Sequence record: OP557969.1
Source of the DNA: Escherichia phage ph0011
Direction: 5' to 3' (one strand)
Length of the DNA: 64,000 bases
A model generated the notes under the pieces. It was given only the letters and a program-made list of their open reading frames with translations, searched no databases and was not told the origin of the DNA. Every line of letters begins with the position of its first letter. The first letter of the stretch is position 1. The position numbers and the translations under genes were made by a program. Below are positions 9,162-25,799 of this stretch, in pieces.

Positions 9162-9162
9162 A

Positions 9163-11240: not shown

Positions 11241-11326
11241 AAAAGTACTTGCAAAGTAAATCAAATAAAGTATAATACATTACATCAAGGGGAGAAAATG
11301 GTTCTCCCCACTAAGAGGAAACTAAT

Positions 11327-11470
11327 ATGAAAACTTGTCAATGTGGTAAAAAATCTATTACGGGTTTGAAACGGGGCGTTGCACTTTGCCAGTATCATTA
11401 TAATGCTCAAGTATGGGGTAAAGAATGGGCCGACCAGGTGGAAGCAGCAAAGAAAGCAAAAAGTAAGTAA
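11327..11470 (+). CDS. micro-protein (about 47 aa), possible zinc-ribbon (CxCG ... CQYH)
   Basis: Complete cassette: promoter, GGGGAGAA/TTCTCCCC hairpin, RBS AAGAGGAAA, ATG; hand-read. Confidence 0.45.
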   Translation: MKTCQCGKKSITGLKRGVALCQYHYNAQVWGKEWADQVEAAKKAKSK

Positions 11471-11482
11471 AAATATTATCAC

Positions 11483-11520
11483 AGTACTATTGACATAGAT
11501 TGATAGTACTGGCATAATAG
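11483..11520 (+). promoter_or_regulatory. class-2 early promoter (AGTACTATTGACA ... AGTACTGGCATAAT)
   Basis: TTGACA, 17-bp spacer, CATAAT, AGTACT flanking both elements; same module at about 14366 and 22582. Confidence 0.55.
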
Positions 11521-11551
11521 ATTTTATCAAGACAACTAAGAGGAAATTAAA

Positions 11552-11896
11552 ATGGCTAACATCAATACTATAGCAGCACAAAATATCAACCTGTCTTCTG
11601 TTGAAGTTGTACACATTGCCGCCCGGCGTTGGTTCCAGGCGTCTTATGGTAATACTTATTTCTCTTTAACGGTAGATGTTGAAATCAATGGCGAATTTAT
11701 TGAAGTAGTAAACGTGCCGTTCCAATATGGCTACGGGGATCATTTTGACACTGTAGCAATGGAAGAATTTAGCAAGGTTATTAATATGGAAGGTAAAGAG
11801 TTTTTACGCGGTTCTTATCTTTCCCGTTTTTGCCGTGATAATAATATTACTGTTTATAGTTCTGTTAGTGATGTTAAACGCAAAAAAGATCTTTAA
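11552..11896 (+). CDS. hypothetical protein, paralog of 18128..18451
   Basis: Shared GNTY, YGYG and C-terminal DVKRKKD; RBS AAGAGGAAA. Confidence 0.7.
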   Translation: MANINTIAAQNINLSSVEVVHIAARRWFQASYGNTYFSLTVDVEINGEFIEVVNVPFQYGYGDHFDTVAMEEFSKVINMEGKEFLRGSYLSRFCRDNNITVYSSVSDVKRKKDL

Positions 11897-11976
11897 TTAG
11901 CTTTACTTTATGCAGATACTTTGATATAGTGTCTGCATAGGGGAAAGAAATTAAATCAACTTAAGAGGATAGTAAA

Positions 11977-12246
11977 ATGAAAAATATCAGTACTTTAATC
12001 GATGCAGGTACACATGTTCGTCGGTCTATGGTTGCAACCAGTTCTACAAAACAAGTAGCGAGCGGTTATCTTGTATTTGTGCACGATGGTAAACTCCTGG
12101 AACGTTCAATCAATTTTGATGTTAAAAACAATTGCCGTTTTATTATCTTTCGCCGTGAACAATATAAGATCGACATTCCAGCGAAGCCCATTAGCGGGGC
12201 GTACAACGTGCAATCATTGTTTGAGCGTCAACCATACACCTATTAA
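11977..12246 (+). CDS. hypothetical protein (89 aa)
   Basis: RBS AAGAGGA upstream. Confidence 0.6.
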   Translation: MKNISTLIDAGTHVRRSMVATSSTKQVASGYLVFVHDGKLLERSINFDVKNNCRFIIFRREQYKIDIPAKPISGAYNVQSLFERQPYTY

Positions 12247-12297
12247 TCAAAACAACGTTAGCGGTCGATTTAGGCCGCTTATACTGGGGATTATATA

Positions 12298-12570
12298 ATG
12301 AATACTAATCAAGTACTGAACGAGATTGAAAGCATCATTAAACCGATGAAGCGTACTGATGCAATGTTAACACCGGAAGAATGCCGCTTATATGAGCGTT
12401 ACAGCGTCGAACAAGTACAGGAAATGGCTATGGCTATCCCTGCCGTTCAACAGCCTGAGAACGCAGTACAGGACGTTACAGGGGATTATAACATCAATCC
12501 AGTACTAGGGAAGATTACACCAATTACCGAAGAACAAAAAGACTACTTAAGCCAGTACTTAAAAGGTTAA
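12298..12570 (+). CDS. hypothetical protein (90 aa)
   Basis: RBS GGGGA upstream; acidic. Confidence 0.6.
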   Translation: MNTNQVLNEIESIIKPMKRTDAMLTPEECRLYERYSVEQVQEMAMAIPAVQQPENAVQDVTGDYNINPVLGKITPITEEQKDYLSQYLKG

Positions 12571-12575
12571 TTAAT

Positions 12576-12785
12576 ATGCTTACTGTACAGGATAAGATCG
12601 ACATCTTAAAGGTTAATATGTATGTGATTGATGCCGTACCTGGTAAAGTATTTGCATACGATGACACCACTGTAAGCAATTTCTACTATAGCCAGGAAGT
12701 GGGGGATCTTTCTGTACAGTCGGTTATTGAAAACGTAGTTAATGCAGCGTATGAGCATTTACTTTCAAATAGTACTTGCAATTAG
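12576..12785 (+). CDS. hypothetical protein (69 aa)
   Basis: ATG 6 nt after upstream stop. Confidence 0.5.
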   Translation: MLTVQDKIDILKVNMYVIDAVPGKVFAYDDTTVSNFYYSQEVGDLSVQSVIENVVNAAYEHLLSNSTCN

Positions 12786-12833
12786 TTTTTAAACGCGTAT
12801 AATGTTTTACATGAAGGGGAGAAATAGTACTCC
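12771..12833 (+). promoter_or_regulatory. early promoter plus 5' leader hairpin cassette
   Basis: AGTACTTGCAA, TATAAT, GGGGAGAAA-tag-TACTCCC hairpin. Confidence 0.55.
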
Positions 12834-12853
12834 CACTAATTAAGGAATAGTAA

Positions 12854-13000
12854 ATGAAAGCATCAAAAAAGAGTACTAACAAGAAAGCACGTTCAACTTT
12901 AGATGGGGTATTCCCTTTGCGTTTTGTGGATGAAGTAGTTTCCTACCCGCTGGGCCTTACTCCTGAGATGGTAGAAAGTTTGCGTAAATCTAAAAAATAG
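12854..13000 (+). CDS. micro-protein (about 48 aa), basic
   Basis: Cassette (promoter, hairpin, RBS TAAGGA) then ATG; hand-read. Confidence 0.4.
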   Translation: MKASKKSTNKKARSTLDGVFPLRFVDEVVSYPLGLTPEMVESLRKSKK

Positions 13001-13081
13001 TACTTGCAATTAGTTTTTAGTACTGTATAATGTTTTACATGAAGGGGAGAAATGATTCTCCCCAAGAACAGGAGAAACAAA

Positions 13082-13234
13082 ATGAAACAATACAACGCTC
13101 GGTTTGATGTTACTATCGGCAACGGCAAAGGTCAATTCTCTTTCAGTACTCGTAAGAGTTATACAGAAAACTTCTTGCGTAATTGTGCACTGACCGCCGC
13201 ACAAATTAAACATTATTTTCAGGCTAAAAAATGA
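13082..13234 (+). CDS. micro-protein (50 aa)
   Basis: Start at MKQYN after hairpin and RBS AGGAGA. Confidence 0.55.
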   Translation: MKQYNARFDVTIGNGKGQFSFSTRKSYTENFLRNCALTAAQIKHYFQAKK

Positions 13235-13320
13235 AATCATTAGCTTATTATAGTTCGGCCCTGGTCGGTGCATTGATCGCGGCATTGTTAGTAGCTTATC
13301 TATTCTTTATGGTGATTTAA
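13231..13320 (+). CDS. tiny hydrophobic peptide (about 29 aa), predicted single transmembrane helix
   Basis: ATGA overlap with upstream stop; MKSLAYYSSALVGALIAALLVAYLFFMVI; hand-read. Confidence 0.35.
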   Translation: MKSLAYYSSALVGALIAALLVAYLFFMVI

Positions 13321-13458
13321 ATGAATCCTAACGGTATAATTTACAGTACTCCTAAAACGAAAGCAGATAAAGCCAAAGCACGTAAAGCGAAAGTAAAGGA
13401 GTACATCAAGCAAGGCATGACACGAAAGGCGGCAGTACTGAAAGCTAAAAATAAATGA
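13321..13458 (+). CDS. lysine-rich micro-protein (about 45 aa)
   Basis: ATG directly after previous stop; highly basic; hand-read. Confidence 0.35.
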   Translation: MNPNGIIYSTPKTKADKAKARKAKVKEYIKQGMTRKAAVLKAKNK

Positions 13459-13459
13459 A

Positions 13460-13565
13460 AAAAGTGGTTGACTTCGGTCAGCCATTTTGCTATTATATAT
13501 TCATTGAGAGATAGCTCACTAGCCCACGGGGTGCGGGAGTGTATCTATTATATAAGCATTGAGTA
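13460..13565 (+). repeat. GGGTGCG-core intergenic element with its own TTGACT..TATTATATA promoter
   Basis: Related copies at about 17190, 20460 and 23200. Confidence 0.5.
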
Positions 13566-13606
13566 CTGAAAACTATTTTAAAAGTATTTGTAGAAAGTAC
13601 TTGCAA

Positions 13607-13660
13607 ACTATCTCAATAGGCGTATAATGTTTTACATCAAGGGGGAAACGGTTTCCCCTA
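13607..13660 (+). promoter_or_regulatory. early promoter plus 5' leader hairpin cassette
   Basis: AGTACTTGCAA, TATAAT, GGGGGAAAC-g-GTTTCCCC hairpin. Confidence 0.6.
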
Positions 13661-13678
13661 GTAATAAGGAATAAAATC

Positions 13679-14020
13679 ATGACTATTGCAATTGTACAAT
13701 CTAACTTTGAAAACGAAATCATCGCCCAAGCACTGCGTTTAAATGATGGTCGGGCCGAAATTAATTACGGTTTCAATTCAGGCGGTTGTGAAAAATATCA
13801 GTACTTTATAACTGCTGATGGCGGTGTCCTGGGTATTAATACAGTTATTGTAAACATTCAGAAAATTAATTTCAATGATCCAGACGATAGCCAGTTTTAC
13901 ATTATAGGCGTAGACGTGAACTATGAGGATGACTCACTAACTGATGATTACACTGGCGAGAAGTTAGAAAGTGCATACGGTGAAGATGATTATCAGTCAG
14001 TACCGGAAGATTTTGAATAA
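13679..14020 (+). CDS. hypothetical acidic protein (113 aa)
   Basis: RBS TAAGGA after hairpin; Asp/Glu-rich C-terminus. Confidence 0.65.
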   Translation: MTIAIVQSNFENEIIAQALRLNDGRAEINYGFNSGGCEKYQYFITADGGVLGINTVIVNIQKINFNDPDDSQFYIIGVDVNYEDDSLTDDYTGEKLESAYGEDDYQSVPEDFE

Positions 14021-14143
14021 TATTAAAAAATAGTTTGACAATAGATTATAGTACTGTATAATATTTTACATGAAGGGCAACGGGAAGTTTTTAAAACTTC
14101 CCTATAGGGAGAATAGTTCTCCCACTAACAGAGAGAAAACAAA

Positions 14144-14356
14144 ATGGCTAATATCTGCACTGTACTGAAAAATGCAAAACAAGTTTTATTTTCTGATCAC
14201 GATCATTTAAACAAGGATATTACTGGCGTTCGGAATATCAAAGATGTAAAAAGTGTTATGGGCATCTATTGCAATATGAAACGTGTTGGAACGTTCGGTA
14301 ATAAATTTCTATACCAAGCGGGGGATTACAATTTTACACTGACTATCATTAACTAA
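14144..14356 (+). CDS. hypothetical protein (70 aa)
   Basis: Promoter, double hairpin, RBS AGAGAGA. Confidence 0.6.
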   Translation: MANICTVLKNAKQVLFSDHDHLNKDITGVRNIKDVKSVMGIYCNMKRVGTFGNKFLYQAGDYNFTLTIIN

Positions 14357-14438
14357 AAATATTATCACAGTACTATTGACATAGATTGATAGTACTGGCA
14401 TAATAGATTTTATCAATTACACTACTAAGGAATTAAAA

Positions 14439-14618
14439 ATGGCTATCATCGCAAAAACTGAAATCATCGGCCTGGATTCTATCATCATGACGTTTGAAGA
14501 TCAAAAAGGTATGTATGTAGTTTCCTATGGTGATTATGTTCGGGAGTATGAAACGGTAGACGAAGCCTTTGAAAGTTACATTCGCCAGGTGAATAAAGCA
14601 TACGACGATTACCGCTAA
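14439..14618 (+). CDS. micro-protein (about 59 aa)
   Basis: Class-2 promoter, RBS TAAGGA, ATG; hand-read. Confidence 0.45.
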   Translation: MAIIAKTEIIGLDSIIMTFEDQKGMYVVSYGDYVREYETVDEAFESYIRQVNKAYDDYR

Positions 14619-14731
14619 AATATATTACCAGTACTATTAAAGATATTGACAACGTTTGATAGTACTGGCATAATAAGTTTTATAAACAGTAGTCAAATAG
14701 TAGTTAACTTAACAAAAGAGAGAGAAACAAA

Positions 14732-14875
14732 ATGATCGCACTGGATTCATTCATCGATGCAGTTCTGGCAAAAACTGGCGAGGATCTGACCGCAGAACAA
14801 TACGCGATGATCGAGCAATGCCAGCAAGACGGTAAATCGGTGAAAGATACTGTTAAGATTATCCGCAAGATGTAA
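14732..14875 (+). CDS. micro-protein (about 47 aa)
   Basis: Class-2 promoter, RBS AGAGAGAGA, ATG; hairpin follows; hand-read. Confidence 0.4.
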   Translation: MIALDSFIDAVLAKTGEDLTAEQYAMIEQCQQDGKSVKDTVKIIRKM

Positions 14876-14981
14876 GATTATAAGCCCATTAGTTAACGCT
14901 GGTGGGCTTTAATCATTTACCCTATACAATGCCAGTACTAAACCGTTTATCTCGTTAGAATGCATTACAGGACGTTTGACA

Positions 14982-15179
14982 ATGATTAGCATGAAATCAG
15001 TACAAAAACAAATAGAAACATTATCAAAAATTAAACGTAAACAGTACTCATTAGAATATAATATCAATGGTAACTATCATCTAATGAAAGAGAATAATTT
15101 TATCGTCATTGATGAATCATTGCAAATTATTAGTATAGTACTGAAAGCATTAATTAATGATAGAAAAAGGTTAAAATAA
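14982..15179 (+). CDS. hypothetical protein (about 65 aa)
   Basis: Track ORF begins at a TTG; first ATG chosen; no clear RBS. Confidence 0.35.
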   Translation: MISMKSVQKQIETLSKIKRKQYSLEYNINGNYHLMKENNFIVIDESLQIISIVLKALINDRKRLK

Positions 15180-15436
15180 TGGCAGTAGGATTCGCGAAAG
15201 ATGGAGCCGAGCAAGATGAGATTAACGCAGTTATTCAAGCCGCCGTTAACCACGCTAGAAAGCAAATTAACGCACAAATAGAATCACTGATACATTGCCT
15301 CGACTGCGGCGATAAAATCCCTGAGAATCGCCGACAGGCTGTTAAGGGTTGTAAGTACTGCATAACTTGCCAGGAGGATCATGATAGTACTTTTAAACGT
15401 CCCCCGCGTAATTGTTGGCATAGATCTATGAGATAA
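15179..15436 (+). CDS. TraR/DksA-family C4 zinc-finger protein
   Basis: C-x2-C-GDKIPENRR ... C-x2-C spacing typical of TraR-like proteins; start overlaps upstream stop. Confidence 0.7.
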   Translation: MAVGFAKDGAEQDEINAVIQAAVNHARKQINAQIESLIHCLDCGDKIPENRRQAVKGCKYCITCQEDHDSTFKRPPRNCWHRSMR

Positions 15437-15500
15437 AAAGTAATTGACAGTACTGAAAGATAGTGTATAATGTTTTATATCTTAACTGAGGATAGAAATC

Positions 15501-15857
15501 ATGGGAATACAACATATCACGCGGACCACTGACAATGGCGAGATCACTGGTTATCAAGTACAGGGCAAAGTAGCACAATTGCAGTACTGGTTTGTTAAAC
15601 GTGGAATCATTGCACCGGATCTTGATTATGACCGTGTAGCGTTTATTGATTCTCTTTATGTTGATCCTGATAGTCGGGGCAATGGTGAAGGTAACGAATT
15701 AATGAATGCCTTTATTGATGCCGCCGATGATTCAGATTGTATCATCTTAGAATGCGATACGGGAGAAGATAACGCCTTTAATCTTAAAGAATGGTACGAA
15801 GGTTTCGGATTCGAGGTATTGATAGATAGTGAATATCCTATCATGATTTTATCATAG
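15501..15857 (+). CDS. probable small GNAT-family acetyltransferase
   Basis: FIDSLYVDPDSRGNGEGNELMNAF resembles GNAT motif A; 118 aa. Confidence 0.4.
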   Translation: MGIQHITRTTDNGEITGYQVQGKVAQLQYWFVKRGIIAPDLDYDRVAFIDSLYVDPDSRGNGEGNELMNAFIDAADDSDCIILECDTGEDNAFNLKEWYEGFGFEVLIDSEYPIMILS

Positions 15858-15936
15858 TACTTGCATTTAGTTTTCAGTACTGTTATAGTACTTGCATCAA
15901 GGGGAAACATCTTCCCCTACTAAGAGGAAATAAAAA

Positions 15937-16125
15937 ATGGAAAACTTATCAAGTATTTTAGTACAAGATGATTTCGGTAATCCTGGAAGTGCTATCATTG
16001 TTCGGGGCAATAAAGCAACGTTTGTTATTGCTGGTGGACCCGTACAGCGTAGCATTAAAAATAATGCTGTTACCATTAATAATGTACGCTATCGCTTAGA
16101 TAAAGAATTAATTCATAAACTGTAA
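15937..16125 (+). CDS. hypothetical protein (62 aa)
   Basis: Promoter, GGGGAAAC..TTCCCC hairpin, RBS AAGAGGAAA. Confidence 0.6.
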   Translation: MENLSSILVQDDFGNPGSAIIVRGNKATFVIAGGPVQRSIKNNAVTINNVRYRLDKELIHKL

Positions 16126-16152
16126 TATTAATTTAATAGAGGATAACAATAA

Positions 16153-16476
16153 ATGTACATTCATACTACTGTCACAAAGGAAGTCCGTTGCCAGTTCGAA
16201 AGTATTCCGGGCGTATGTTTCATCACTGGTACGTTTTCCCCTGGTGATCGTGATAATCCAGTACTGTTACAGTTACGCCATCCATTATGGGATAAAGCAT
16301 TTGATCTGCCGTTGAATGAATTCGCAACCACTGCTGATAAGTACATTAAAAATATTCGCGAGAATGATTGCCTATTCATTAATGCTTTTAGTGATGCCGC
16401 GTTAAGTGAGATCCATGCTGTATTGGTTGCAATCATGGAATCAATGGAGAAAACTATATTCAAACAAGGTGAATAA
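16153..16476 (+). CDS. hypothetical protein (107 aa)
   Basis: RBS AGAGGA upstream. Confidence 0.6.
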   Translation: MYIHTTVTKEVRCQFESIPGVCFITGTFSPGDRDNPVLLQLRHPLWDKAFDLPLNEFATTADKYIKNIRENDCLFINAFSDAALSEIHAVLVAIMESMEKTIFKQGE

Positions 16477-16481
16477 AAACT

Positions 16482-16542
16482 ATTGACAATGCAATCCAGT
16501 ACTGTATAATAGTTTACATGAAGGGGAGAAATGATTCTCCCC
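16482..16542 (+). promoter_or_regulatory. early promoter plus 5' leader hairpin cassette
   Basis: TTGACA, AGTACTGTATAAT, GGGGAGAA-atga-TTCTCCCC perfect palindrome. Confidence 0.65.
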
Positions 16543-16559
16543 ACTAAGAGGAAAGAAAA

Positions 16560-16772
16560 ATGCAAGGTCAACTAATCGTTCGTAAATGGTCTGATACTAA
16601 CGAAAAACCGTGGGATGTACAATACATCGCCCCAAATGGTGAATCCAGATATCAACCAGGTGTAACGCATAGTACTGAGCAATTCGCCGCCGCTCATCGC
16701 GAACGTCTGTTACAATCAATGCAGCACGGTTCCGGTGAAAAATTCATTCAGGATCATTGGCTGAAAGATTAA
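16560..16772 (+). CDS. hypothetical protein (70 aa)
   Basis: ATG after hairpin and RBS AAGAGGAAA. Confidence 0.65.
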   Translation: MQGQLIVRKWSDTNEKPWDVQYIAPNGESRYQPGVTHSTEQFAAAHRERLLQSMQHGSGEKFIQDHWLKD

Positions 16773-16858
16773 AAAGTACTTGCACAGTACTGAATAAAGT
16801 GTATAATGTTTTATATCGGAAGGGGAATAGTTCCCCTCCTAACAAAGAGGAAAGTATA

Positions 16859-17032
16859 ATGGTCCAGGTAGAATTAACAGTACTGAAAGATCTGTTTTAT
16901 CGGATTGGTACTACTGGCGAATATCCGAAGGGTGATAATGCAAAACTTTACGTATCACTCGACTTATGGCAACGCGAACAATTAGCAACGGCCTGGCGTA
17001 AAGGCAAAGCAGATAGCGAGGTGAAAGCATGA
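16859..17032 (+). CDS. micro-protein (57 aa)
   Basis: Start at MVQVEL after hairpin and RBS AAGAGGAAA. Confidence 0.55.
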   Translation: MVQVELTVLKDLFYRIGTTGEYPKGDNAKLYVSLDLWQREQLATAWRKGKADSEVKA

Positions 17033-17178
17033 AAGAATTCTTATTTGAAGTAGTGTTTCAAGGTGTCGGTAATAACCAACTGATTCGATCAAGTGGTTAT
17101 AATGTTAACCAGGCATGGAATAACATTAAACAAATGTACCCTAACGCTATCACATATCGCAACCCGAAAGAAGTTTAA
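17029..17178 (+). CDS. micro-protein (about 49 aa)
   Basis: ATGA overlap with upstream stop; hand-read. Confidence 0.35.
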   Translation: MKEFLFEVVFQGVGNNQLIRSSGYNVNQAWNNIKQMYPNAITYRNPKEV

Positions 17179-17189
17179 AAATATTTGAA

Positions 17190-17290
17190 AAAGGGATTGA
17201 CTCCGGTCAGTCCCTTTGCTATTATATACGCATAGAAACAAATCAGCCCACAGGGTGCATAAATGTATCTATTGTTTGCTGGTGGCTAGT
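17190..17290 (+). repeat. GGGTGCG-core intergenic element with own promoter
   Basis: GGGATTGACTCCGGTCAGTCCCTTTGCTATTATATA then AGCCCACAGGGTGCAT; near-identical 5' part at 20460 and 23200. Confidence 0.5.
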
Positions 17291-17353
17291 ACTGAAAACT
17301 ATTTTTAAAAAAGTACTTGCATTGTACTTAGAATCAAGTATAATGTTTTACAT

Positions 17354-17424
17354 CAGGACGGGGAACGAAATAAGTAACCCCGTTAAGTAGTCCAGGAGTA
17401 AGACATACGAAAAACTCCCCTGAT
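17354..17424 (+). other. structured about 75-nt leader element (copy 2)
   Basis: Near-identical to 6731-6803; between tandem promoters upstream of 17494. Confidence 0.45.
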
Positions 17425-17493
17425 AAAATAGTTTGACAATAGAAAGTAAACGAGTATAATACTTACATCAACCACTGATAAGGAAACATTAAA

Positions 17494-17769
17494 ATGCGGA
17501 CTTTACTTACAGCTAACGAAATCGAGCAAGTACTGACTACTAATCTGGAACAATGGAAACGTGAAGCAGATATCCAGGCGGTTCAATGCCTTAACGATAA
17601 GTTAACGCCAGATGACTTAAGCACGATTGTTGATCCACAATTTTATGAAGATATTCACGACACGTCTTTAAGCGTCGAGGATGTACTTGATAAGCACTAC
17701 ATTGATACTGATTTACATGTTTACGGTCGTAAAAACTTTATCACTATTCACGACATTTACAATACTTAA
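17494..17769 (+). CDS. hypothetical acidic protein (91 aa)
   Basis: RBS TAAGGAAA upstream. Confidence 0.65.
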   Translation: MRTLLTANEIEQVLTTNLEQWKREADIQAVQCLNDKLTPDDLSTIVDPQFYEDIHDTSLSVEDVLDKHYIDTDLHVYGRKNFITIHDIYNT

Positions 17770-17772
17770 GTA

Positions 17773-17836
17773 TTGACAAAGTATCTTAGTACTGTATAAT
17801 AGTTTACATCAAGTGAGGGGAAACGGTTCCCCTCCT
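17773..17836 (+). promoter_or_regulatory. early promoter plus 5' leader hairpin cassette (duplicate A)
   Basis: TTGACA, AGTACTGTATAAT, GAGGGGAA..TTCCCCTC hairpin; about 85-bp near-identical copy at 18044-18127. Confidence 0.65.
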
Positions 17837-17857
17837 AACAAAGAGAGAGAAATTAAA

Positions 17858-18040
17858 ATGGCTAAGTGCACTATCTGTAAGAAAGAAATCGTATTAGTTC
17901 CAAGTGCCCGTGAACGTGCCGCTCGGTTCGGTGGCAAAGCGTCAGACTATACAAAAATGTTTACTGCCCATGCAGCTTGTCAAGTAGCAAAACGTTCACA
18001 AGAAAGCGTAGAATTAATGCGTAAACTTTCCAAAAAATAA
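17858..18040 (+). CDS. micro-protein (60 aa), Cys/Lys-rich
   Basis: Start at MAKCTICKKE after hairpin and RBS AGAGAGAGA; start set from track frame. Confidence 0.6.
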   Translation: MAKCTICKKEIVLVPSARERAARFGGKASDYTKMFTAHAACQVAKRSQESVELMRKLSKK

Positions 18041-18043
18041 GTA

Positions 18044-18104
18044 TTGACAAAGTATCTTAGTACTGTATAATAGTTTACATCAAGCGAGGGGAATGGTTCC
18101 CCTC
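18044..18104 (+). promoter_or_regulatory. early promoter plus 5' leader hairpin cassette (duplicate B)
   Basis: Near-identical to 17773-17836. Confidence 0.65.
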
Positions 18105-18127
18105 CTAACAAAGAGAGAGAAATAAAA

Positions 18128-18451
18128 ATGGCTATGATCCTTACCCAGAAAGTAGAACTGAAAATTGTAACCTCCTTTGACATTAAAGTTAATCGGTGGA
18201 CTGATAGCCACGGCAATACTTACCACTCCTGCTACGTGTCCGCATTGATTGGTGATCGCTGGGAAGACCTGGGACACGAAACCTTTACATACGGTTACGG
18301 CACACAAGGCGAGTACACGGGTTTAGAAATCATTAAGGAAACTGTAATAGGTTTCAACCCGAAAGAGAAAGTACTACACAGAATTGAGAAAGAGATCAAC
18401 AAAGAAATTACAGTTCGCTACTACGATGTAAAACGTAAGAAAGACATGTAA
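18128..18451 (+). CDS. hypothetical protein, paralog of 11552..11896
   Basis: Shared GNTY, YGYG, DVKRKKD. Confidence 0.7.
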   Translation: MAMILTQKVELKIVTSFDIKVNRWTDSHGNTYHSCYVSALIGDRWEDLGHETFTYGYGTQGEYTGLEIIKETVIGFNPKEKVLHRIEKEINKEITVRYYDVKRKKDM

Positions 18452-18546
18452 TAGAATCCATTTAAAGTACTATTTGACATTGCCCAGATAGTACTTTATA
18501 ATAGACTCTAACTTGTAGTACTAACTTAACTAATAGGATGTATACC

Positions 18547-18942
18547 ATGATTACTAAATTCTACGCTACCCGTGAAGCTGCCCGTATTGTTGCACGCGAG
18601 GAAGGAGCAGCATTTAAAGACATGGGCAAAGATGCACCGAAAGGTCAACGCTGGGCCGTACAGTTCAAAGAAATCTCTGATATTGTGAATTCACCTGAGC
18701 CAGTACTGACAGCAGCAGAACTAAAACGAGCGGATATGCTGGCGGCAATACTTGACGCACAAGATGAGTTTATCGCTGATTCTGATATCAAAGTACAGGT
18801 AAACCACACCGCATGGACTCACGCGGATCACCTGGCAAACCTTAAGCGTCCAAGTGAACTGATTCGCAACCAGAAAGAGATCCGACATGATCGTAAGGGT
18901 AATCGTGTAACAGTATACAGTAAACGCCGCCAGGTTATCTAA
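18547..18942 (+). CDS. hypothetical protein, paralog of 5861..6127
   Basis: Start at MITKFYATRE (RBS AGGA 8 nt upstream). Confidence 0.6.
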   Translation: MITKFYATREAARIVAREEGAAFKDMGKDAPKGQRWAVQFKEISDIVNSPEPVLTAAELKRADMLAAILDAQDEFIADSDIKVQVNHTAWTHADHLANLKRPSELIRNQKEIRHDRKGNRVTVYSKRRQVI

Positions 18943-18964
18943 TAACTTGCAGTACTAACAACAC

Positions 18965-18990
18965 GGCGGGATCAGTTCCCGCCTTTTTTA
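18965..18990 (+). terminator. rho-independent terminator
   Basis: GGCGGGA/TCCCGCC stem then TTTTTTA; same stem type as leader hairpins but with a U-run. Confidence 0.7.
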
Positions 18991-19003
18991 TAGGACAAAC
19001 AAA

Positions 19004-19258
19004 ATGATTAAGGTTCAACTATATAAAGATAACATCTTACGGGTACACTATAAAGCACCGAAGAGAATCATCACAAAGGCCGTACAGCTTGCTAATGAGT
19101 TTATTAATGGTAACCTATTACCGAGGAAGTTAAGCAACGGGAAACTGCGTGTAATCGATGTGGACACTAACAACAGGATAGTAATCGAGAACACAGGAAA
19201 GATAAACCTTTATGAGCATCAACAATACAATAAGAAAATAAAACTAATATCACGTTGA
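19004..19258 (+). CDS. hypothetical basic protein (84 aa)
   Basis: RBS AGGACAAACAAA. Confidence 0.55.
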   Translation: MIKVQLYKDNILRVHYKAPKRIITKAVQLANEFINGNLLPRKLSNGKLRVIDVDTNNRIVIENTGKINLYEHQQYNKKIKLISR

Positions 19259-19311
19259 CAGTACTCAATTGTTTTAGTATTATGTACACATACCAACACG
19301 GGAGAAACAAA

Positions 19312-19530
19312 ATGAAATTATCTAAAATCGAAAAGAAAACTATTGATGAAGCAGTTAAGCACGGTTATACCTTTCGTAATGATTCACATTTTACCAATTT
19401 TCAACAAGGGTATCGTACTATTAAAAAACTAATTGACAAAGGTTTATTAGTTGAAGTCAATAACGGTAACGGTATCGAGTATCAACCAACACAGGACGCA
19501 TTTTATTTTAAGAAATATAATATTATCTAA
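19312..19530 (+). CDS. hypothetical protein (72 aa)
   Basis: Start at MKLSKIEKK after RBS GGGAGAAACAAA. Confidence 0.55.
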   Translation: MKLSKIEKKTIDEAVKHGYTFRNDSHFTNFQQGYRTIKKLIDKGLLVEVNNGNGIEYQPTQDAFYFKKYNII

Positions 19531-19588
19531 TTGACAGTACTCAAATGTTTTAGTACTATATGTACATACCAACACGGGGGGAAACAAA

Positions 19589-19831
19589 ATGATTACTTTA
19601 GAAAAACGTATCAAAGAAACTACATCGCTGGTGGAACTGTTAACAGTACTCAAATGTAAAACAACACCATTCAGCACGCCGGACTTTATTAATATGGTTG
19701 ATGTTAATGGTCGCTATCGTATCACGGTCGAACAAGGAGCGGCGAAAGTATTCAGTACTAAAAACACGAAGGAAGTGATCCACGCCGTTAATGTTAAAAA
19801 AGTAGTTGCCATTGATAGTAAAGTACTGTAA
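19589..19831 (+). CDS. hypothetical protein (80 aa)
   Basis: RBS GGGGGGAAACAAA; upstream module repeats that of 19312. Confidence 0.55.
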   Translation: MITLEKRIKETTSLVELLTVLKCKTTPFSTPDFINMVDVNGRYRITVEQGAAKVFSTKNTKEVIHAVNVKKVVAIDSKVL

Positions 19832-19862
19832 TATAGTTTCATTAACTCAAGGAGAACATGCA

Positions 19863-20447
19863 ATGCGTAATTATACTAAATTCATCCGTACACTGTCAGA
19901 AATGGAAACCAACAAAGAGATCCTTTCAGCTTGTCGGTTAGCTGGCCTGGAGATCATCGGTGCTGGTTCTTCCCGTATAGTTTTCGCTTTAAATGATCGG
20001 TTAGTGATTAAGGTCGCGAATTGTGATGCGGGTGTAGAACAAAATGAAACTGAATGTAAGGTATGGAATTTTTTAGACTATGACCGCCCTCAATTGAAAC
20101 AGTACTTTGCAAAGGTGCATATGCATTTATGCGATCCTGATAATATGTTTATCGTTATGGATCGGTTGAGTACTGCAAGCAAAGGCAGTGTGAAGCACGT
20201 AAACGCGTGCAATGAATTAAAGTACAATATTAAACGTAATGCAATCGAACGCCAGCACCGCTTTGCTGATGCACTACAACACGTTGATGATACATTATCA
20301 ACACTAACGATAAGAGATATCAGAAAACAGAATATCGGCCAGGATCGTAATGGACTTATTAAAGTACTTGATTACGGTTTAACCAGCAATATCTGGAATC
20401 AGTACTATAAAAAGCGTGATGTGGCAGCAAGTAAGGTAACACGATAA
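19863..20447 (+). CDS. minimal protein-kinase-like protein (about 195 aa)
   Basis: Gly-rich loop IIGAGSSRIVF, Lys motif LVIKVA, catalytic-loop-like IRDIRKQN, DFG-like LDYG in canonical order and spacing; RBS AAGGAG. Confidence 0.6.
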   Translation: MRNYTKFIRTLSEMETNKEILSACRLAGLEIIGAGSSRIVFALNDRLVIKVANCDAGVEQNETECKVWNFLDYDRPQLKQYFAKVHMHLCDPDNMFIVMDRLSTASKGSVKHVNACNELKYNIKRNAIERQHRFADALQHVDDTLSTLTIRDIRKQNIGQDRNGLIKVLDYGLTSNIWNQYYKKRDVAASKVTR

Positions 20448-20459
20448 AAAAGATTAAAA

Positions 20460-20560
20460 AAGGGATTGACTCCGGTCAGTCCCTTTGCTATTATATATCC
20501 ATTGAGAGATAACTCACTGACCCATAGGGTGCGGAAGTGTATCTATTATATAAGTATTCA
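20460..20560 (+). repeat. GGGTGCG-core intergenic element with own promoter
   Basis: GGGATTGACTCCGGTCAGTCCCTTTGCTATTATATA ... CCCATAGGGTGCGGAAGTGTATCTAT. Confidence 0.5.
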
Positions 20561-20667
20561 GTACTGAAAACTATTTTTAAAAAAGTACTTGCATTGTACT
20601 TAGAATCAAGTATAATGTTTTATATCGAGAGGGGGAATGGTTCTCCCTGGCAATAAGGAATAAAATC

Positions 20668-20889
20668 ATGACTACAATGACTTGCATTTACGCTTCTAAT
20701 CTTCTGAATGATGCGGCCTTTAATGTTGATTCAGAATATCAATGTTATCGGGATGAAAATAAAAAAGTTTTTGTAGTTGATAATAATGGTTTCCATATTG
20801 AATTACAATCCGGCTTCACTGGTGTTGATGGTAAATCAGTATGGGGCGTACAGGATGATAAAGGCACATATCATTTTAAACGTAATTAA
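20668..20889 (+). CDS. hypothetical protein (73 aa)
   Basis: Promoter, GGGGGAATGGTTCTCCC hairpin, RBS TAAGGA. Confidence 0.65.
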   Translation: MTTMTCIYASNLLNDAAFNVDSEYQCYRDENKKVFVVDNNGFHIELQSGFTGVDGKSVWGVQDDKGTYHFKRN

Positions 20890-20892
20890 GTA

Positions 20893-20951
20893 TTGACAAA
20901 GTATATCAGTACTGTATAATAGTTTACATCAAGGGGAGAATAGTTCTCCCC
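20893..20951 (+). promoter_or_regulatory. early promoter plus 5' leader hairpin cassette (duplicate C)
   Basis: TTGACA, AGTACTGTATAAT, GGGGAGAA-tag-TTCTCCCC; near-identical copy at 21385-21442. Confidence 0.65.
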
Positions 20952-20972
20952 GATACTAAAAGGAATAAAATC

Positions 20973-21377
20973 ATGACTACTACTAATCAAGCTCGGTCCA
21001 TCGCCAACGATAAAAATCATGCTGCAATGGTCGCTGGTTACATTGAAGCTATGCAATTCAGTACTGTACACAATGAGAACGGCGATTACCTGGAAGATTA
21101 TGAATTATCAGAGCAAGCCCATCAAGCGGCGGTGATTGCATGTTCTCGCTTCATTGAGAAACACGGTAATGATCTGGAAGTAGTTCGCGGTATGTTTATT
21201 GATTACGGTTATGAGCAAGCTGGTCATGATCTCTTTCTTACTCGCGAAGGTCACGGCACTGGTTTTTGGGATCGTGGTTTAGGTCACTATGGCGATGTAT
21301 TCACGAAGTACTGCGAAGAAATCAACGTTTGCGATCCCTATGTAGGCGATGATAATCTAATCTATATGGGCGAATAA
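20973..21377 (+). CDS. hypothetical protein (134 aa)
   Basis: RBS AAAGGA after hairpin. Confidence 0.65.
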   Translation: MTTTNQARSIANDKNHAAMVAGYIEAMQFSTVHNENGDYLEDYELSEQAHQAAVIACSRFIEKHGNDLEVVRGMFIDYGYEQAGHDLFLTREGHGTGFWDRGLGHYGDVFTKYCEEINVCDPYVGDDNLIYMGE

Positions 21378-21384
21378 AAGTATT

Positions 21385-21442
21385 TGACAAAGTATATCAG
21401 TACTGTATAATAGTTTACATCAAGGGGAGAATAGTTCTCCCC
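21385..21442 (+). promoter_or_regulatory. early promoter plus 5' leader hairpin cassette (duplicate D)
   Basis: Near-identical to 20893-20951. Confidence 0.65.
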
Positions 21443-21461
21443 ACTAAAAGGAAACAAAATT

Positions 21462-21734
21462 ATGTCTAGCTACTCCGCAACTATGATCATCAAAGATATG
21501 AATAACAATCCTACCGCCGCTGGTGGATCGTTCGGTAACATTAACCTAGATGGTCGGTTATCCATGCAATCAGCCATCGATGCAGCGAAAGAAGTTTTTA
21601 AGAATGAATGTACTGTTAGTAAGCTGGATTATATGGGTTTCGCTATCGAGAAAACTACTCGTTTTGTGAACTACAAAAATCCACTGATGATTGATACTAA
21701 CCTGAAAGCTAACGAAGTGGGGTACTTATTATGA
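21462..21734 (+). CDS. hypothetical protein (90 aa)
   Basis: RBS AAAGGAAAC after hairpin. Confidence 0.65.
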   Translation: MSSYSATMIIKDMNNNPTAAGGSFGNINLDGRLSMQSAIDAAKEVFKNECTVSKLDYMGFAIEKTTRFVNYKNPLMIDTNLKANEVGYLL

Positions 21735-21922
21735 CAGTAGAAGAAGTTAAAAAAGTACTGGCAGTACTACGATATCATAATCATTGCAAGGTGAAGAATG
21801 ATCCTGATTATCTTGATTCATCCCTGGAGGAAGACACCTTGAACGCTATAAGCCATATGCAGACATTAGCAAAGCGTATGACTGAAAAGAATATGCCGGA
21901 CTATATCGGAAATAAAATTTAA
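21731..21922 (+). CDS. hypothetical protein (63 aa)
   Basis: ATGA overlap with upstream gene. Confidence 0.5.
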   Translation: MTVEEVKKVLAVLRYHNHCKVKNDPDYLDSSLEEDTLNAISHMQTLAKRMTEKNMPDYIGNKI

Positions 21923-22009
21923 AAAGTACTTGCATTGTAGTTAGATTAACGTATAATGTTTTATATCGAGAGGGGGAAATGGTTTCCCCTCAAGTCCAGG
22001 AGATACACC

Positions 22010-22273
22010 ATGAACACTATCGAAATCACTATCAATGCACACGTATACGACAACGTAGTACTGCAAACTACTATGACCGCCAATGATACCAGTACTTTGC
22101 GGAATACTGTTATTAGTGCCGTATGTGCCGCTATCGGTGATGTCGCCCTGGAAAATGCAAAACACGTAAACGATGGTTTCACTATGTGCAAACGTGATAA
22201 CGCAAAACATATCATCGTGGAAGGTTACGGCGGTGTAGAATTTAATGTTTATATGAAAAAAGTACTTGCATAA
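22010..22273 (+). CDS. hypothetical protein (87 aa)
   Basis: Start at MNTIEIT after GGGGGAAA..TTTCCCC hairpin and RBS CAGGAG. Confidence 0.6.
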   Translation: MNTIEITINAHVYDNVVLQTTMTANDTSTLRNTVISAVCAAIGDVALENAKHVNDGFTMCKRDNAKHIIVEGYGGVEFNVYMKKVLA

Positions 22274-22340
22274 TAACTAAAACAAAGTATAATGTTTTGC
22301 ATAGGGGGAGATATCCTCCCCCACTAAAAGGAGTAATAAA

Positions 22341-22565
22341 ATGGCTAACTTTGATGAACTGATGCGGGAAGTAGCTAACCTGGCAGAAGAGAAGAAATCA
22401 TTCGATTCTATCTATAACACCGCTCACCGTGATTCAGTACTGGCATGTAACCAGGATCAAAAAGATGAACTAATCGCCACCTATCATGAAGCATGGAAGT
22501 ACTACCGACAATGGGAGAAAGAAGAAAGTGAGTCTACCATTGACGGCCTCAATAATCTAATCTAA
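22341..22565 (+). CDS. hypothetical acidic protein (74 aa)
   Basis: Promoter, GGGGGAG..CTCCCCC hairpin, RBS AAAGGAG. Confidence 0.65.
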   Translation: MANFDELMREVANLAEEKKSFDSIYNTAHRDSVLACNQDQKDELIATYHEAWKYYRQWEKEESESTIDGLNNLI

Positions 22566-22581
22566 AAGTTTTATTTCAGTA

Positions 22582-22615
22582 CTATTGACATAGCTTGATA
22601 GTACTGATGTAATAA
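22582..22615 (+). promoter_or_regulatory. class-2 early promoter
   Basis: AGTACTATTGACA ... AGTACTGATGTAAT. Confidence 0.5.
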
Positions 22616-22641
22616 CTTTACTAACTACAAGGGGAAACATA

Positions 22642-22899
22642 ATGGATCAGTTCACACAATATCGGGTAAATCCACAAGCTATGGCCTACGTAGAAGACCA
22701 TAAAACGTTACCAGTACTGCAACCAGTTAAAGGCCATATCTATCGTGCAATGTCGTGGTGTACGGCCCAGGATGGCTATAAAACCGTAGCCGTGGGTATG
22801 TATTGCGGTGATGGTGAATGGTTTGATCCAAATAATCCGGTAGCCATTGACAGTACTGAAAAAATGAAATGGGCCGACTACATCGAAGATATTTCATAA
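22642..22899 (+). CDS. hypothetical protein (85 aa)
   Basis: RBS AAGGGGAAA. Confidence 0.6.
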   Translation: MDQFTQYRVNPQAMAYVEDHKTLPVLQPVKGHIYRAMSWCTAQDGYKTVAVGMYCGDGEWFDPNNPVAIDSTEKMKWADYIEDIS

Positions 22900-22989
22900 A
22901 AACTATTTGACAGTACTAACCAGTAATGTATAATGTTTTACATAGAGCGGGGGAATAGTTCTCCCGCCAATAGTTTGGAGTAAAACATT

Positions 22990-23190
22990 ATGTCTATCGC
23001 TATCGCCATGGTTGAAGTACTGAAAGAAGCTAAAGCCAACCAGATCGACGTAAAGATCCAGGAACTACAAAACGGCTTAATCGGCTGTACTTGTACCGCT
23101 GGTGGAGCGGCAGACTATCGAGAACACGAATCACTCGAATCACTGGTTCGGTATCTTACCATGATCGTTGATGATTGGAGAATCATCTAA
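22990..23190 (+). CDS. hypothetical protein (66 aa)
   Basis: Promoter, GCGGGGGAA..TTCTCCCGC hairpin, RBS GGAG. Confidence 0.6.
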   Translation: MSIAIAMVEVLKEAKANQIDVKIQELQNGLIGCTCTAGGAADYREHESLESLVRYLTMIVDDWRII

Positions 23191-23199
23191 CAAAAAAGA

Positions 23200-23330
23200 A
23201 TAAAAAAAGGGATTGACTCCGGTCAGTCCCTTTGCTATTATATACGCATAGACAAAAACTAGCCCACAGGGTGCATAGGTGTATCCAAAATATATAGTTA
23301 ATAACGGTGAGTAACTATCTGCTGGTGGAA
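23200..23330 (+). repeat. GGGTGCG-core intergenic element with own promoter (longest copy)
   Basis: Same 5' part as 17190 copy with an insertion in the central region. Confidence 0.5.
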
Positions 23331-23435
23331 CTAAAACTATTAATAAAAAAGTATTGACAAAGTATATCAGTACTGCAATAATGTATCTCATAGGGCGGCA
23401 ATGGTGCGACGGCCCACAAAGTTAGGAGATTCAAA

Positions 23436-23768
23436 ATGACTACTTCAATCGCTATCGTTAAAGCTTTCATCCGTACTAATGTTTCCTCTGTATTCATCGA
23501 CGGCCTCGACCGTAACGTAGAATACTCAATCATTATCGCACAAACGGCAAACGGTTCTCGGTACATCCTGAATGATAGTGAAGCAAATCACTACTACTTC
23601 ACTAAAGCCACTGGCTTTAAACGCATCGATGCTGATGTAGTATACGCTAAGATGAATAAGCTGGTAGATAAGATTAACGCTAAAGGTACTATAGATTTAC
23701 AGTACTGGACCGAAACCGATCCAGAATATGGATCTCACCGCTACCTGAATCCAGGTATTAAAATGTAA
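23436..23768 (+). CDS. hypothetical protein (110 aa)
   Basis: Promoter, GGGCGG..CGGCCC hairpin, RBS TAGGAG. Confidence 0.65.
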   Translation: MTTSIAIVKAFIRTNVSSVFIDGLDRNVEYSIIIAQTANGSRYILNDSEANHYYFTKATGFKRIDADVVYAKMNKLVDKINAKGTIDLQYWTETDPEYGSHRYLNPGIKM

Positions 23769-24756: not shown

Positions 24757-24984
24757 ATGATTGATAATAATTTTAAGGGAGTCCCTGTGCGTATTTTAAC
24801 TCAAGCAGAACACCACGAAAGACTTATTAACAATATGGCTATGATAATGTATAAGTCACATAAACGTGGTATTGCCTATAAGCATGAATTAGTACTGGAA
24901 CTATTCATTGGGACTAACTATCAGGAAAGGTATGTCAACGATTGGATTTGGTATTTAATTGAAGATATAACGAGTAAACTATGA
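24757..24984 (+). CDS. FamB small protein
   Basis: Motif FIGTNYQERYV; first array member. Confidence 0.55.
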   Translation: MIDNNFKGVPVRILTQAEHHERLINNMAMIMYKSHKRGIAYKHELVLELFIGTNYQERYVNDWIWYLIEDITSKL

Positions 24985-25175
24985 TAATTTTAACTAAAGA
25001 AGAATATCAATCACTGTTACGTAAAAACTACGTAAAGATTTACAATACAGACACACACGTAGAACGAATGGAGTTATACCTTTTGATTACATTGGGAACT
25101 AACTATCAGGAAAGATGGGTGATTCAATATATGGATACATTGAAAAATAAAATATTGTCCACGAGGAAACAATGA
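24981..25175 (+). CDS. FamB small protein
   Basis: LGTNYQERWV; ATGA overlap. Confidence 0.55.
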   Translation: MIILTKEEYQSLLRKNYVKIYNTDTHVERMELYLLITLGTNYQERWVIQYMDTLKNKILSTRKQ

Positions 25176-25381
25176 AAACTATAACACGAACCAAATCATT
25201 AGGTCTTATCTTGAAATACATGGACTTAATGGTGGATATCAGCAAAGACCTTCCTAAAACTGCAATTGAAGTTGCAAGAGCAGAGTACCGTCTATTAGCA
25301 GTACTGAATACTAACTACCAGGATGAATATGTTGACGATTGGATTCTATCATTAAAAAAAGATATAAAGAGTAAACTATGA
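25172..25381 (+). CDS. FamB small protein
   Basis: LNTNYQDEYV; ATGA overlap. Confidence 0.55.
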   Translation: MKTITRTKSLGLILKYMDLMVDISKDLPKTAIEVARAEYRLLAVLNTNYQDEYVDDWILSLKKDIKSKL

Positions 25382-25590
25382 TTTTTTTAACGCCAGAAGA
25401 ATATAAGAAACGTTTCAATTCTGTCCAGATTGACATTTTACTTATATACAATTCAAATGCAGACCTTGGCTTATCAAGGGTATTAGAAAAAGATTTACTT
25501 ATGGGTGCATTTTTGGATACAGACTTTCAGGTGTATTATGTAGGGGAATACTTAATTGCACTTCAGAATTACATTAAGAGTAAACTATGA
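25378..25590 (+). CDS. FamB small protein
   Basis: LDTDFQVYYV; C-term YIKSKL; ATGA overlap. Confidence 0.55.
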   Translation: MIFLTPEEYKKRFNSVQIDILLIYNSNADLGLSRVLEKDLLMGAFLDTDFQVYYVGEYLIALQNYIKSKL

Positions 25591-25799
25591 ATAGCATTAA
25601 CTCAAATCAATATACCGAACGCGTCGCTGCAAGGCAACTTGAAATCCTCATATTATATGAAGAGGCTGATGATTTGAACTTAGCATCAGTATTGGAAAAT
25701 GAAATACTATTGGGTGCATTCCTTGGTACTGACTATCAGGAGCATTTCTTGAATGAGTATATAGTTGCCCTCCAGAAATACATTAAGAGCAAACTATGA
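25587..25799 (+). CDS. FamB small protein
   Basis: LGTDYQEHFL; close paralog of 25378; ATGA overlap. Confidence 0.55.
   Translation: MNSINSNQYTERVAARQLEILILYEEADDLNLASVLENEILLGAFLGTDYQEHFLNEYIVALQKYIKSKL

Follow-up and report, generated by a model that had tools for sequence, protein, structure and literature searches.

Genomic context and copies of the unit

The stretch of DNA analyzed here (64,000 nt from Escherichia phage ph0011, sequence record OP557969.1; hereafter, the window) contains ten copies of a dispersed unit with a GGGTGC core, and comparison of these copies with their counterparts in related phages establishes a clade-specific, repeat-confined, multi-copy unit that combines a predicted promoter with a structured RNA. 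Positions 13300–23600 of the window are 88–98% identical to the genomes of Asteriusvirus jumbo coliphages (fEgEco12, G17, 121Q and PBECO4 relatives, 350–386 kb) and, judged by this similarity, the window covers the early region, with the terminal repeat, of a RaK2/121Q-like jumbo coliphage. The genome of fEgEco12 has direct terminal repeats of 20,993 bp, the termini of which have been determined with PhageTerm and by restriction mapping (PMC13070987). Direct alignment places the left end of fEgEco12 at window position 3358 and the end of its repeat at ~24688, so that the terminal repeat of the window (1–20,993 in fEgEco12) would extend between these two boundaries. The unit is assigned to the terminal repeat because the window aligns to a repeat with experimentally fixed termini.

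The repeat region is dense with small plus-strand genes, each located behind a 'standard' early cassette that consists of AAAAAGTACTTGCA-N16-TATAAT, a hairpin in the 5' untranslated region (5'-UTR) and a Shine-Dalgarno sequence, and is present in at least 23 copies between positions 3700 and 24000. The covariance model R1 identifies exactly ten copies of the GGGTGC unit in the window, six on the plus strand and four on the minus strand, all within 4460–23294, with no matches in the remaining 40 kb (24–64 kb). The core CCCAYNGGGTGC occurs nine times in the window compared to the expectation of 0.30, and none of 100 shuffled sequences reaches nine. The ten units are as follows (P1 and P2 denote the two hairpins of the RNA element described below).

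4460–4547, minus strand: unit 1; promoter TTGCTT-16-TATAAT (4547–4520), predicted start ~4513, RNA element 4517–4460 (core 4492–4480, P2 4485–4468; R1 score 42.8 bits, E-value 2e-6); directed toward the genome end and the repeat array.
4582–4663, plus strand: unit 2, a partial copy (4644–4663) without the CCCAYA half; weak promoter TTGCTA-18-TACTAT; P2 hairpin AGGGTGCGGGAGTGTATCCT (4645–4664) followed by TTTTTAAATTTT and hence terminator-like; R1 score 17.1 bits, E-value 0.61; convergent with unit 3.
4677–4765, minus strand: unit 3; promoter TTGACT-16-TATAAT (4765–4738), predicted start ~4731, RNA element 4735–4677 (core 4709–4697, P2 4702–4685; 51.6 bits).
6476–6561, plus strand: unit 4; promoter TTGACT-17-CATAAT with TG (6476–6504), predicted start ~6511, RNA element 6505–6561 (P1 GGC/GCC, core 6529–6541, P2 6536–6553; 51.6 bits); convergent with unit 5.
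6567–6648, minus strand: unit 5; promoter TTGACA-17-CATAAT with TG (6648–6620), predicted start ~6613, RNA element 6624–6567 (core 6599–6587, P2 6592–6575; 38.5 bits).
8681–8811, minus strand: unit 6; promoter TTGACA-17-CATAAT (8811–8783), predicted start ~8776, RNA element 8780–8723 (51 bits); continues past AGUACUG into a bidirectional hairpin (8703–8681) shared with the upstream plus-strand gene, giving a predicted RNA of ~100 nt.
13461–13554, plus strand: unit 7; hairpin 13461–13488 around the -35 hexamer, promoter TTGACT-17-TATTAT with TG (13468–13496), predicted start ~13503, RNA element 13497–13554 (core 13522–13534, P2 13529–13546; 60 bits).
17190–17278, plus strand: unit 8; hairpin 17190–17217 around the -35 hexamer, promoter 17197–17225, predicted start ~17232, RNA element 17221–17278 (core 17246–17258, P2 17253–17270; 52.6 bits).
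20459–20552, plus strand: unit 9; hairpin 20459–20486 around the -35 hexamer, promoter 20466–20494, predicted start ~20501, RNA element 20495–20552 (core 20520–20532, P2 20527–20544; 65.3 bits).
23206–23294, plus strand: unit 10; hairpin 23206–23233 around the -35 hexamer, promoter 23213–23241, predicted start ~23248, RNA element 23237–23294 (core 23262–23274, P2 23269–23286; 53.3 bits).

The original prediction, which was derived from the window sequence alone, described a direct-orientation unit recurring at about 13460, 17190, 20460 and 23200, each time just upstream of a standard early cassette, and this description holds: the 36-nt promoter block is found exactly at 17193, 20462 and 23209 (none expected), a diverged version with compensatory stem changes occupies 13461–13496, and all four copies sit between a terminator and the next early promoter. 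The inverted core pairs (4646/4702 and 6536/6592) and the single cores proposed at about 4480 and 8745 (located at 4485 and 8748) are likewise recovered, but the description of these copies as the core alone has to be abandoned because each has its own sigma70-like promoter on the same strand and at the same distance. The span of the family also has to be extended, from 13460–23330 to 4460–23294. Failure of the copies to align beyond the promoter hexamers had been named as an observation that would count against the family; the copies align for ~58 nt further downstream.

Promoter and terminator components

Promoters were surveyed in 69 copies from seven loci of six or seven phage genomes (see below), scoring each site over the 12 hexamer positions in comparison with random positions. 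A promoter-like site with a score of at least 8 is present in all 69 copies, as expected if the unit carries its own promoter, and a score of at least 10 is reached in 58 copies compared to 4.6% of random positions; TG is present in 41 copies. The distance between the end of the -10 hexamer and GGGUG is 26–35 nt in 64 of the 69 copies and falls into two classes, 26–28 and 31–35 nt, the values for the other five copies being script mis-assignments. The predicted start falls on the A of a CAT motif in nine of the ten window copies, and the start of the element lies at about +2 to +4 of the predicted RNA in all copies.

In the co-directional copies, and only in these (13461, 17190, 20459 and 23206 in the window), the block GGGATTGAC-TCCG-GTCAGTCCC forms a 12-bp terminator-like hairpin followed by the T-rich tail TTTGCTATT, and the -35 hexamer lies inside this intrinsic-terminator stem. 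The promoter in these four direct copies, TTGACT-17-TATTAT with TG, matches the consensus and is preceded by an A-run. The corresponding hairpin of G17 is predicted by ARNold at -13 kcal/mol, and the annotations of G17 and GAP32 mark this hairpin alone, as a 'terminator' or 'stem_loop'. Among the plus-strand copies, to which this comparison applies, the stem covaries between copies of the window (GTGG..CCAT at 13461) as well as between genera, where the variants GGGA/TCCC, GTGG/CCAT, GGGG/CCCC, GTAC/GTAC and AGG/CCT are observed. By analogy, the direct copies resemble the terminator/promoter cassettes of T4-type phages known as promoter-early stem-loops (PeSLs), and intergenic 'terminators' annotated in these genomes would really be terminator-promoter-RNA units.

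The 5'-UTR hairpin of the standard early cassette (GGGGAGAA..UUCUCCCC) begins a few nucleotides past the CAT start motif that is also used by the GGGTGC units, and this common motif suggests that the two types of cassettes share an origin. The palindrome AGTACT is present 248 times in the window compared to ~21 expected from the nucleotide composition (the runner-up palindromic hexamer is found 93 times), with the highest density at 1–24000. It is part of the -35 flank (AAAAAGTACTTGCA) and of the extended -10 (CAGTACTGTATAAT), and is located 18–60 nt past GGGTG in 42 of the 69 copies compared to 28% of random sites; in CBB and GAP32, AGUACU pairs make terminator stems.

Structure of the predicted RNA

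The first ~50 nt of the predicted transcript include, in order, the P1 hairpin, a short purine-rich linker, the RCCC-N3-4-GGGUGC core and the P2 hairpin. P1 is a stem of 3–5 bp with a purine-rich loop (AGAUAA, AGAACAA, GCGAAA or GAGAAA) and is sometimes represented by the loop alone. The core consists of an invariant RCCC, three or four variable nucleotides and GGGUGC. In P2, which has 5–6 bp, GGGUG(C) pairs with (G)YRYCY across a six-nucleotide loop, the last nucleotide of which is a conserved U.

These pairings were assessed on an alignment that was anchored solely on GGGTG and hence was not fitted to any structure. In this alignment, 81.6% of the paired cells are complementary compared to 28–46% with slid partners; in a model-based alignment the fraction is 84%, with covariation of 0.466 vs. 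0.235, and the slid controls across both alignments give 28–49%. All four P1 pairs change on both sides (GC, CG, AU and UA). In P2, 91% of the cells are paired and the five core pairs vary only between G-U and G-C or between U-A and U-G; there are no transversions in the three inner pairs (36-51, 38-49 and 39-48) while the neighboring loop columns vary freely. As most of the P2 pairs are G-U, neither DNA nor the antisense RNA could form this hairpin, and therefore selection acts on the sense transcript rather than on a DNA site. Taken together, the covariation and wobble pattern in the alignments indicates an RNA structure of the sense strand, in agreement with the suggestion that the element could encode a family of short RNAs, the expression of which is predicted. 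The other options offered in the original prediction, a protein-binding or recombination site, are not supported as the primary, DNA-level role given that the G-U pairs correspond to A-C mismatches on the opposite strand or in DNA.

An alternative pairing between RCCC and GGGU is possible in 97% of the cells, where R is A or G opposite U. The resulting mini-hairpin and P2 are mutually exclusive and have similar computed energies (mean -3.6 vs. -3.1 kcal/mol), such that the element may be bistable according to these calculations. The variable gap of 3–4 nt between the invariant CCC and GGG fits a hairpin loop.

Orientation and transcript ends

The copies are found in three settings. Co-directional copies are preceded by a terminator and followed by the next early promoter. 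In the second setting, copies on the opposite strand are aimed at the bidirectional terminator of the upstream gene (8748 on the minus strand of the window; 16288 and 23356, both on the minus strand of RaK2; 3327 and 12020, both on the minus strand of Munch), and the predicted RNAs are 95–105 nt long with U-tracts on their own side. The third setting includes convergent pairs, such as 4646/4702 and 6536/6592 in the window; fEgEco12 and CBB each have one convergent pair ~1 kb from the physical left end. Altogether, in five annotated genomes (the window, RaK2, CBB, GAP32 and Munch), 20 of the 55 copies (36%) face away from every gene, and several gene-opposed copies are followed, ~40 nt further on, by an own-side hairpin with a U-tract. 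The stand-alone copies, to which such terminators are confined, combine a 5' loop rich in A with an AU-rich linker and a U-tailed terminator. In a few copies (4645–4664 in the window, 17354 in GAP32 and 15237 in CBB), a U-run immediately follows P2, suggesting a minimal unit of ~50 nt.

In several relatives, a palindrome resembling a Fur box is present in the spacer between convergent copies; one example, GATAATGATAATCATTTAC, agrees with the Fur consensus at 17 of 19 positions. Such sites are located at ~12650–13590 in RaK2, at ~1009–1083 and 7409–7476 in Munch, and also in the loci L018 and L077; the window contains no match to the Fur box with up to three mismatches.

Distribution and specificity

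A search with a 116-nt query detects the unit in 69 phage records, with identity down to ~70%, and the phages include those infecting Escherichia, Klebsiella (RaK2 and K64-1), Pectobacterium (CBB), Cronobacter (GAP32), Salmonella (Munch and 7t3) and Erwinia. The search of related genomes with a covariance model, which had been recommended in the original prediction, was carried out with R1 and yields 69 matches in seven loci from five host genera, with 10–14 copies per annotated genome, each set within a span of ~17–20 kb, as well as 34 further matches in other viral contigs of 355–378 kb. On fEgEco12, R1 finds ten matches at 1079–19598, inside the 20,993-bp repeat, and in CBB all copies are inside the annotated 22,456-bp repeat. 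An eleventh-position copy of fEgEco12 (11185–11242) is located, together with a small gene, in a 318-bp segment (11150–11468) that has no counterpart in the window; judging from the alignment, this difference is a cassette gain or loss.

Conversely, R1 has no matches in 857 kb of unrelated viral DNA with exact copies of the 14-mer core, in 30 bacterial loci with the inverted 12-mer pair or in a 16-kb Serratia BF locus. The scan of viral contigs for the 14-mer was rejected as a census because most of the hits are chance matches (none of the 100 scanned loci fit the model) and was used as a specificity control. Convergent-core palindromes in bacteria, which lack P1, P2 and the promoter and are not matched by R1, were treated as coincidence. 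Among metagenome-assembled genomes (MAGs), those of Ruminococcus carry a multi-copy long palindrome with the same 12-mer as the inner arms (..AATTTCAGCCCCATAGGGTGCAT..ATGCACCCTATGGGGCTGAAATT..), and single palindromes with the core pair are present in one Streptomyces and in one gammaproteobacterial MAG.

Comparison with known RNAs and host sequences

The window contains no tRNA or tmRNA genes detectable with ARAGORN and no matches to Rfam 15 at the gathering thresholds, including ToxI, CRISPR repeats, 6S RNA, tmRNA, riboswitches and small ribozymes; with E-values up to 5, the segment 4380–8900, which includes six copies, gives two chance-level Rfam matches, none of them on the core. At the sensitivity of BLAST, no counterpart or complement of at least ~21 nt is found in 5,426 E. 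coli genomes or 72,556 plasmids. The element is not described in the jumbo-phage literature that was searched, including the genome papers of CBB, fEgEco12 and PA5oct. Several other roles that were considered, namely a ToxI-like antitoxin, a ribosome decoy, an N4-type hairpin promoter, an RfaH ops-like site and a consensus pause, found no support, and neither did a CsrA sponge, given that GGA is present in only ~60% of the P2 loops.

Predicted function of the RNA family

From these observations we infer that the GGGTGC units constitute a family, not described before, of about ten genes for short, structured small RNAs, with expression predicted from their promoters. As to function, we give about even chances to a decoy or scaffold role, under which the paralogous units would supply a high dose of a trans-acting, protein-binding RNA. 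Each unit would have a strong sigma70-type promoter, fused in the co-directional copies to the terminator of the preceding cassette, and the early genes of the repeat, RNAs included, would be transcribed by the host RNA polymerase immediately after infection. Some of the RNAs would end at their own or a shared terminator (~50–105 nt), and others would continue into the next early cassette. The RNAs would be made in large amounts and act in trans, with the invariant core and P2 as the binding site for a protein that is conserved either across the Enterobacterales hosts or among these phages, and would thus serve as decoys or scaffolds and not regulate the downstream gene. A purely cis role for the downstream genes is disfavored because many copies are antisense and terminated. 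Recognition by a protein is favored because RCCC..GGGUGC is strictly invariant amid free variation elsewhere and no pairing target was detected.

Several considerations weigh against this scheme. The promoters and terminators are consensus predictions; the co-directional copies lack a terminator of their own, so that their RNA might be nothing more than a leader; and the annotations of the relatives examined list no RNA-binding protein in the repeat. The 5' arm of P2 is invariant, so that its support comes from one side, and single-sequence folds are not consistently better than shuffles (z-scores from -0.95 to -5.4). The choice of protein binding over base pairing is a preference, not a result.

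A more specific version, which we regard as doubtful, is that the units define a new class of phage counter-host RNA, a ~50-nt decoy that titrates or re-programs a conserved enterobacterial protein. About 20 gene copies per virion genome (ten per terminal repeat) would be transcribed in the first minutes of infection, the target might be an RNA-decay, RNA-chaperone, RNA-polymerase or immune-sensor component, and a switch between the near-isoenergetic RCCC/GGGU mini-hairpin and P2 would gate the exposure of the binding site.

For the decoy or scaffold role, analogies can be drawn with two groups of phage RNAs. The pseudo-ToxI antitoxin RNA and RNA anti-CRISPRs are short, highly expressed, repeated phage RNAs that titrate a host protein, as the favored model has it; unlike these, the element matches no ToxI, CRISPR-repeat or other Rfam family and has no host sequence counterpart in the E. 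coli genomes or plasmids searched. PA5oct, a distantly related jumbo phage that depends on the RNA polymerase of its host, produces abundant non-coding transcripts, ncRNA001 and ncRNA002, from its long terminal repeat (2–5% of the phage reads; PMC7318152). The parallel is analogy only: these RNAs are 236–451 nt long and single-copy, and they were rejected as homologs (best R1 match 13 bits, E-value 1.2).

RaK2-like jumbo phages are under development for therapy although over 80% of their genes are uncharacterized, as is their entire non-coding content. The family is kept in at least five host genera, with 10–14 copies per terminal repeat that are hence doubled in the virion, and the promoters of the element are the best of the region. 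If expressed as predicted, these RNAs would rank with the most abundant phage transcripts of the early phase and provide a clear handle on host take-over; the covariance model and the predicted starts make the RNA family directly testable.

Alternative explanations

The nascent RNA could instead act in cis on its own RNA polymerase, in the manner of the HK022 put sites or of nut sites, altering pausing or termination and allowing read-through of the cassette terminators, which we consider unlikely. The RCCC/GGGU stem resembles the lambda boxB stem, and the co-directional copies are terminator-free and face a terminator-rich region. Like putL and putR, the element is a structured RNA that needs no coding capacity and lies within a few nucleotides of an early start, at a fixed distance in all copies, and its two hairpins and invariant segment are comparable with the two stem-loops of put, located just past PL, and their conserved unpaired residues (PMC9378689). 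However, put, which was compared by its description only, spans ~70 nt, folds into two long stems and a triplex, is present twice per genome and always faces an antiterminated operon, whereas the element has ~50 nt, far shorter hairpins (3–5 bp in P1 and 5–6 bp in P2) and 10–14 copies, many of them antisense or followed by a terminator. The 36% of copies that face away from all genes are difficult to reconcile with such a function, the own-side U-tract terminators of several gene-opposed copies would be pointless for a terminator-resistant polymerase, and polymerases from convergent pairs would collide; nearly every gene has its own promoter, so that read-through is unneeded, and boxA (YGCUCUUWA) matches only twice in the 64 kb of the window, at chance frequency and both times far from any copy. 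Base pairing through a shared seed, as in Qrr1-5 and OmrA/B, is similarly improbable; under this scenario, one or more RNAs of the host or the phage would be targeted by the core or by the single-stranded RCCCAYA, perhaps with the help of Hfq. Like those small RNAs, the units are paralogous genes with their own promoters and an invariant stretch (here, of 12 nt) amid divergence, an arrangement suggestive of dosage, the stand-alone copies have typical small-RNA architecture, and the plus-strand core has perfect antisense partners in the minus-strand copies. Yet these opposite-strand copies are the only complementary sites found by a duplex scan of the plus strand of the window, weaker duplexes show no excess (148 compared to 83–394 for shuffled cores), and the E. 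coli genomes searched contain no complementarity of at least ~21 nt at the sensitivity of BLAST. Unlike in Qrr1-5 and OmrA/B, the invariant stretch is largely paired, with half of the putative seed locked in P2 or in the mini-hairpin, the 3' ends are heterogeneous, with many copies devoid of a terminator or U-tail, and the genes are carried by phages, within the terminal repeat only.

A role at the DNA level, with the RNA as a by-product, is a rather remote prospect in our estimate; the copies would then be PeSL-like shuffling linkers, protein-binding sites, or transcription-activated sites of replication or terminal processing. The terminator/promoter shell is indeed best compared with the PeSLs of T4-type phages, the defining feature of which is a terminator joined to a promoter in the gaps between small ORFan genes (Arbiol et al., 2010, PMC2839356; Comeau et al., 2014, PMC4122927). 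Shared features are the G/C-rich stem-loop terminator, the strong sigma70-like early promoter with an AT-rich upstream region and the insulation of cassettes; one copy coincides with an indel between close relatives, the 318-bp difference from fEgEco12. The confinement to the terminal repeat, with a convergent pair near the left end in fEgEco12 and CBB, and the inverted repeat ACCC-N3-GGGT are also compatible with a DNA-level role. In contrast to PeSLs, the -35 hexamer of the element lies inside the terminator stem, a third of the copies are antisense to genes, and the promoter would drive a conserved ~50-nt structured RNA that is best described as having no described counterpart, whereas PeSLs have no conserved transcribed segment. 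Furthermore, the P1 covariation and the P2 changes of the G-U type only would be mismatched in DNA or on the other strand, the two halves of the inverted repeat are separated by either 3 or 4 nt, only about half of the copies have A-T as the outer pair, and four of the five breakpoints between the window and fEgEco12 are away from element copies, with one involving a copy. The least probable explanation, to which we attach very little weight, is that the repeat is selfish or neutral, in which case a promoter cassette would have spread, its transcript being functionless. The multiple copies in both orientations and some presence/absence polymorphism fit this possibility, but the core and structure are kept across at least five phage genera among copies that are otherwise ~70% identical, the copies lack terminal inverted repeats and target duplications, and both their number and their location are stable.

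Other features of the terminal repeat

The gene layout shifts at 24.7 kb, where the promoter-per-gene cassettes give way to ~30 tightly packed paralogous open reading frames of 70–85 aa that have no promoters of their own, span 24757–32000 and belong to the repeat families D9 and D18. At the other boundary, the window contains ~1.6 kb of non-coding sequence (3358–5000) that begins where the physical left end of fEgEco12 aligns, just downstream of short tandem repeats at 3222–3296. This stretch includes TTACCCCTTxGGGGTAA hairpins at ~3490–3560 and a periodic array, CTAGATGGCTAAACGG, with a period of 8/16/24 nt at 4186–4267, and the element copies at 4485 and 4702, both on the minus strand, are directed toward it; the stretch could serve as a terminus, in packaging or as an origin.

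A second conserved non-coding segment, of ~85 nt, is present at 6730–6815 and 17352–17435 and, in a diverged form, at 9915–10000, directly after a standard early promoter and before another promoter. Its sequence is AUCAGGACGGGG..CCCCG..UAAGUAG.CC.AGGAGUAAG..ACGAAAAACUCCCCUGAU, with a closing stem AUCAGG/CCUGAU and a minimum free energy of -20.9 kcal/mol (z-score -2.95), and two of the three copies are located just downstream of GGGTGC elements.

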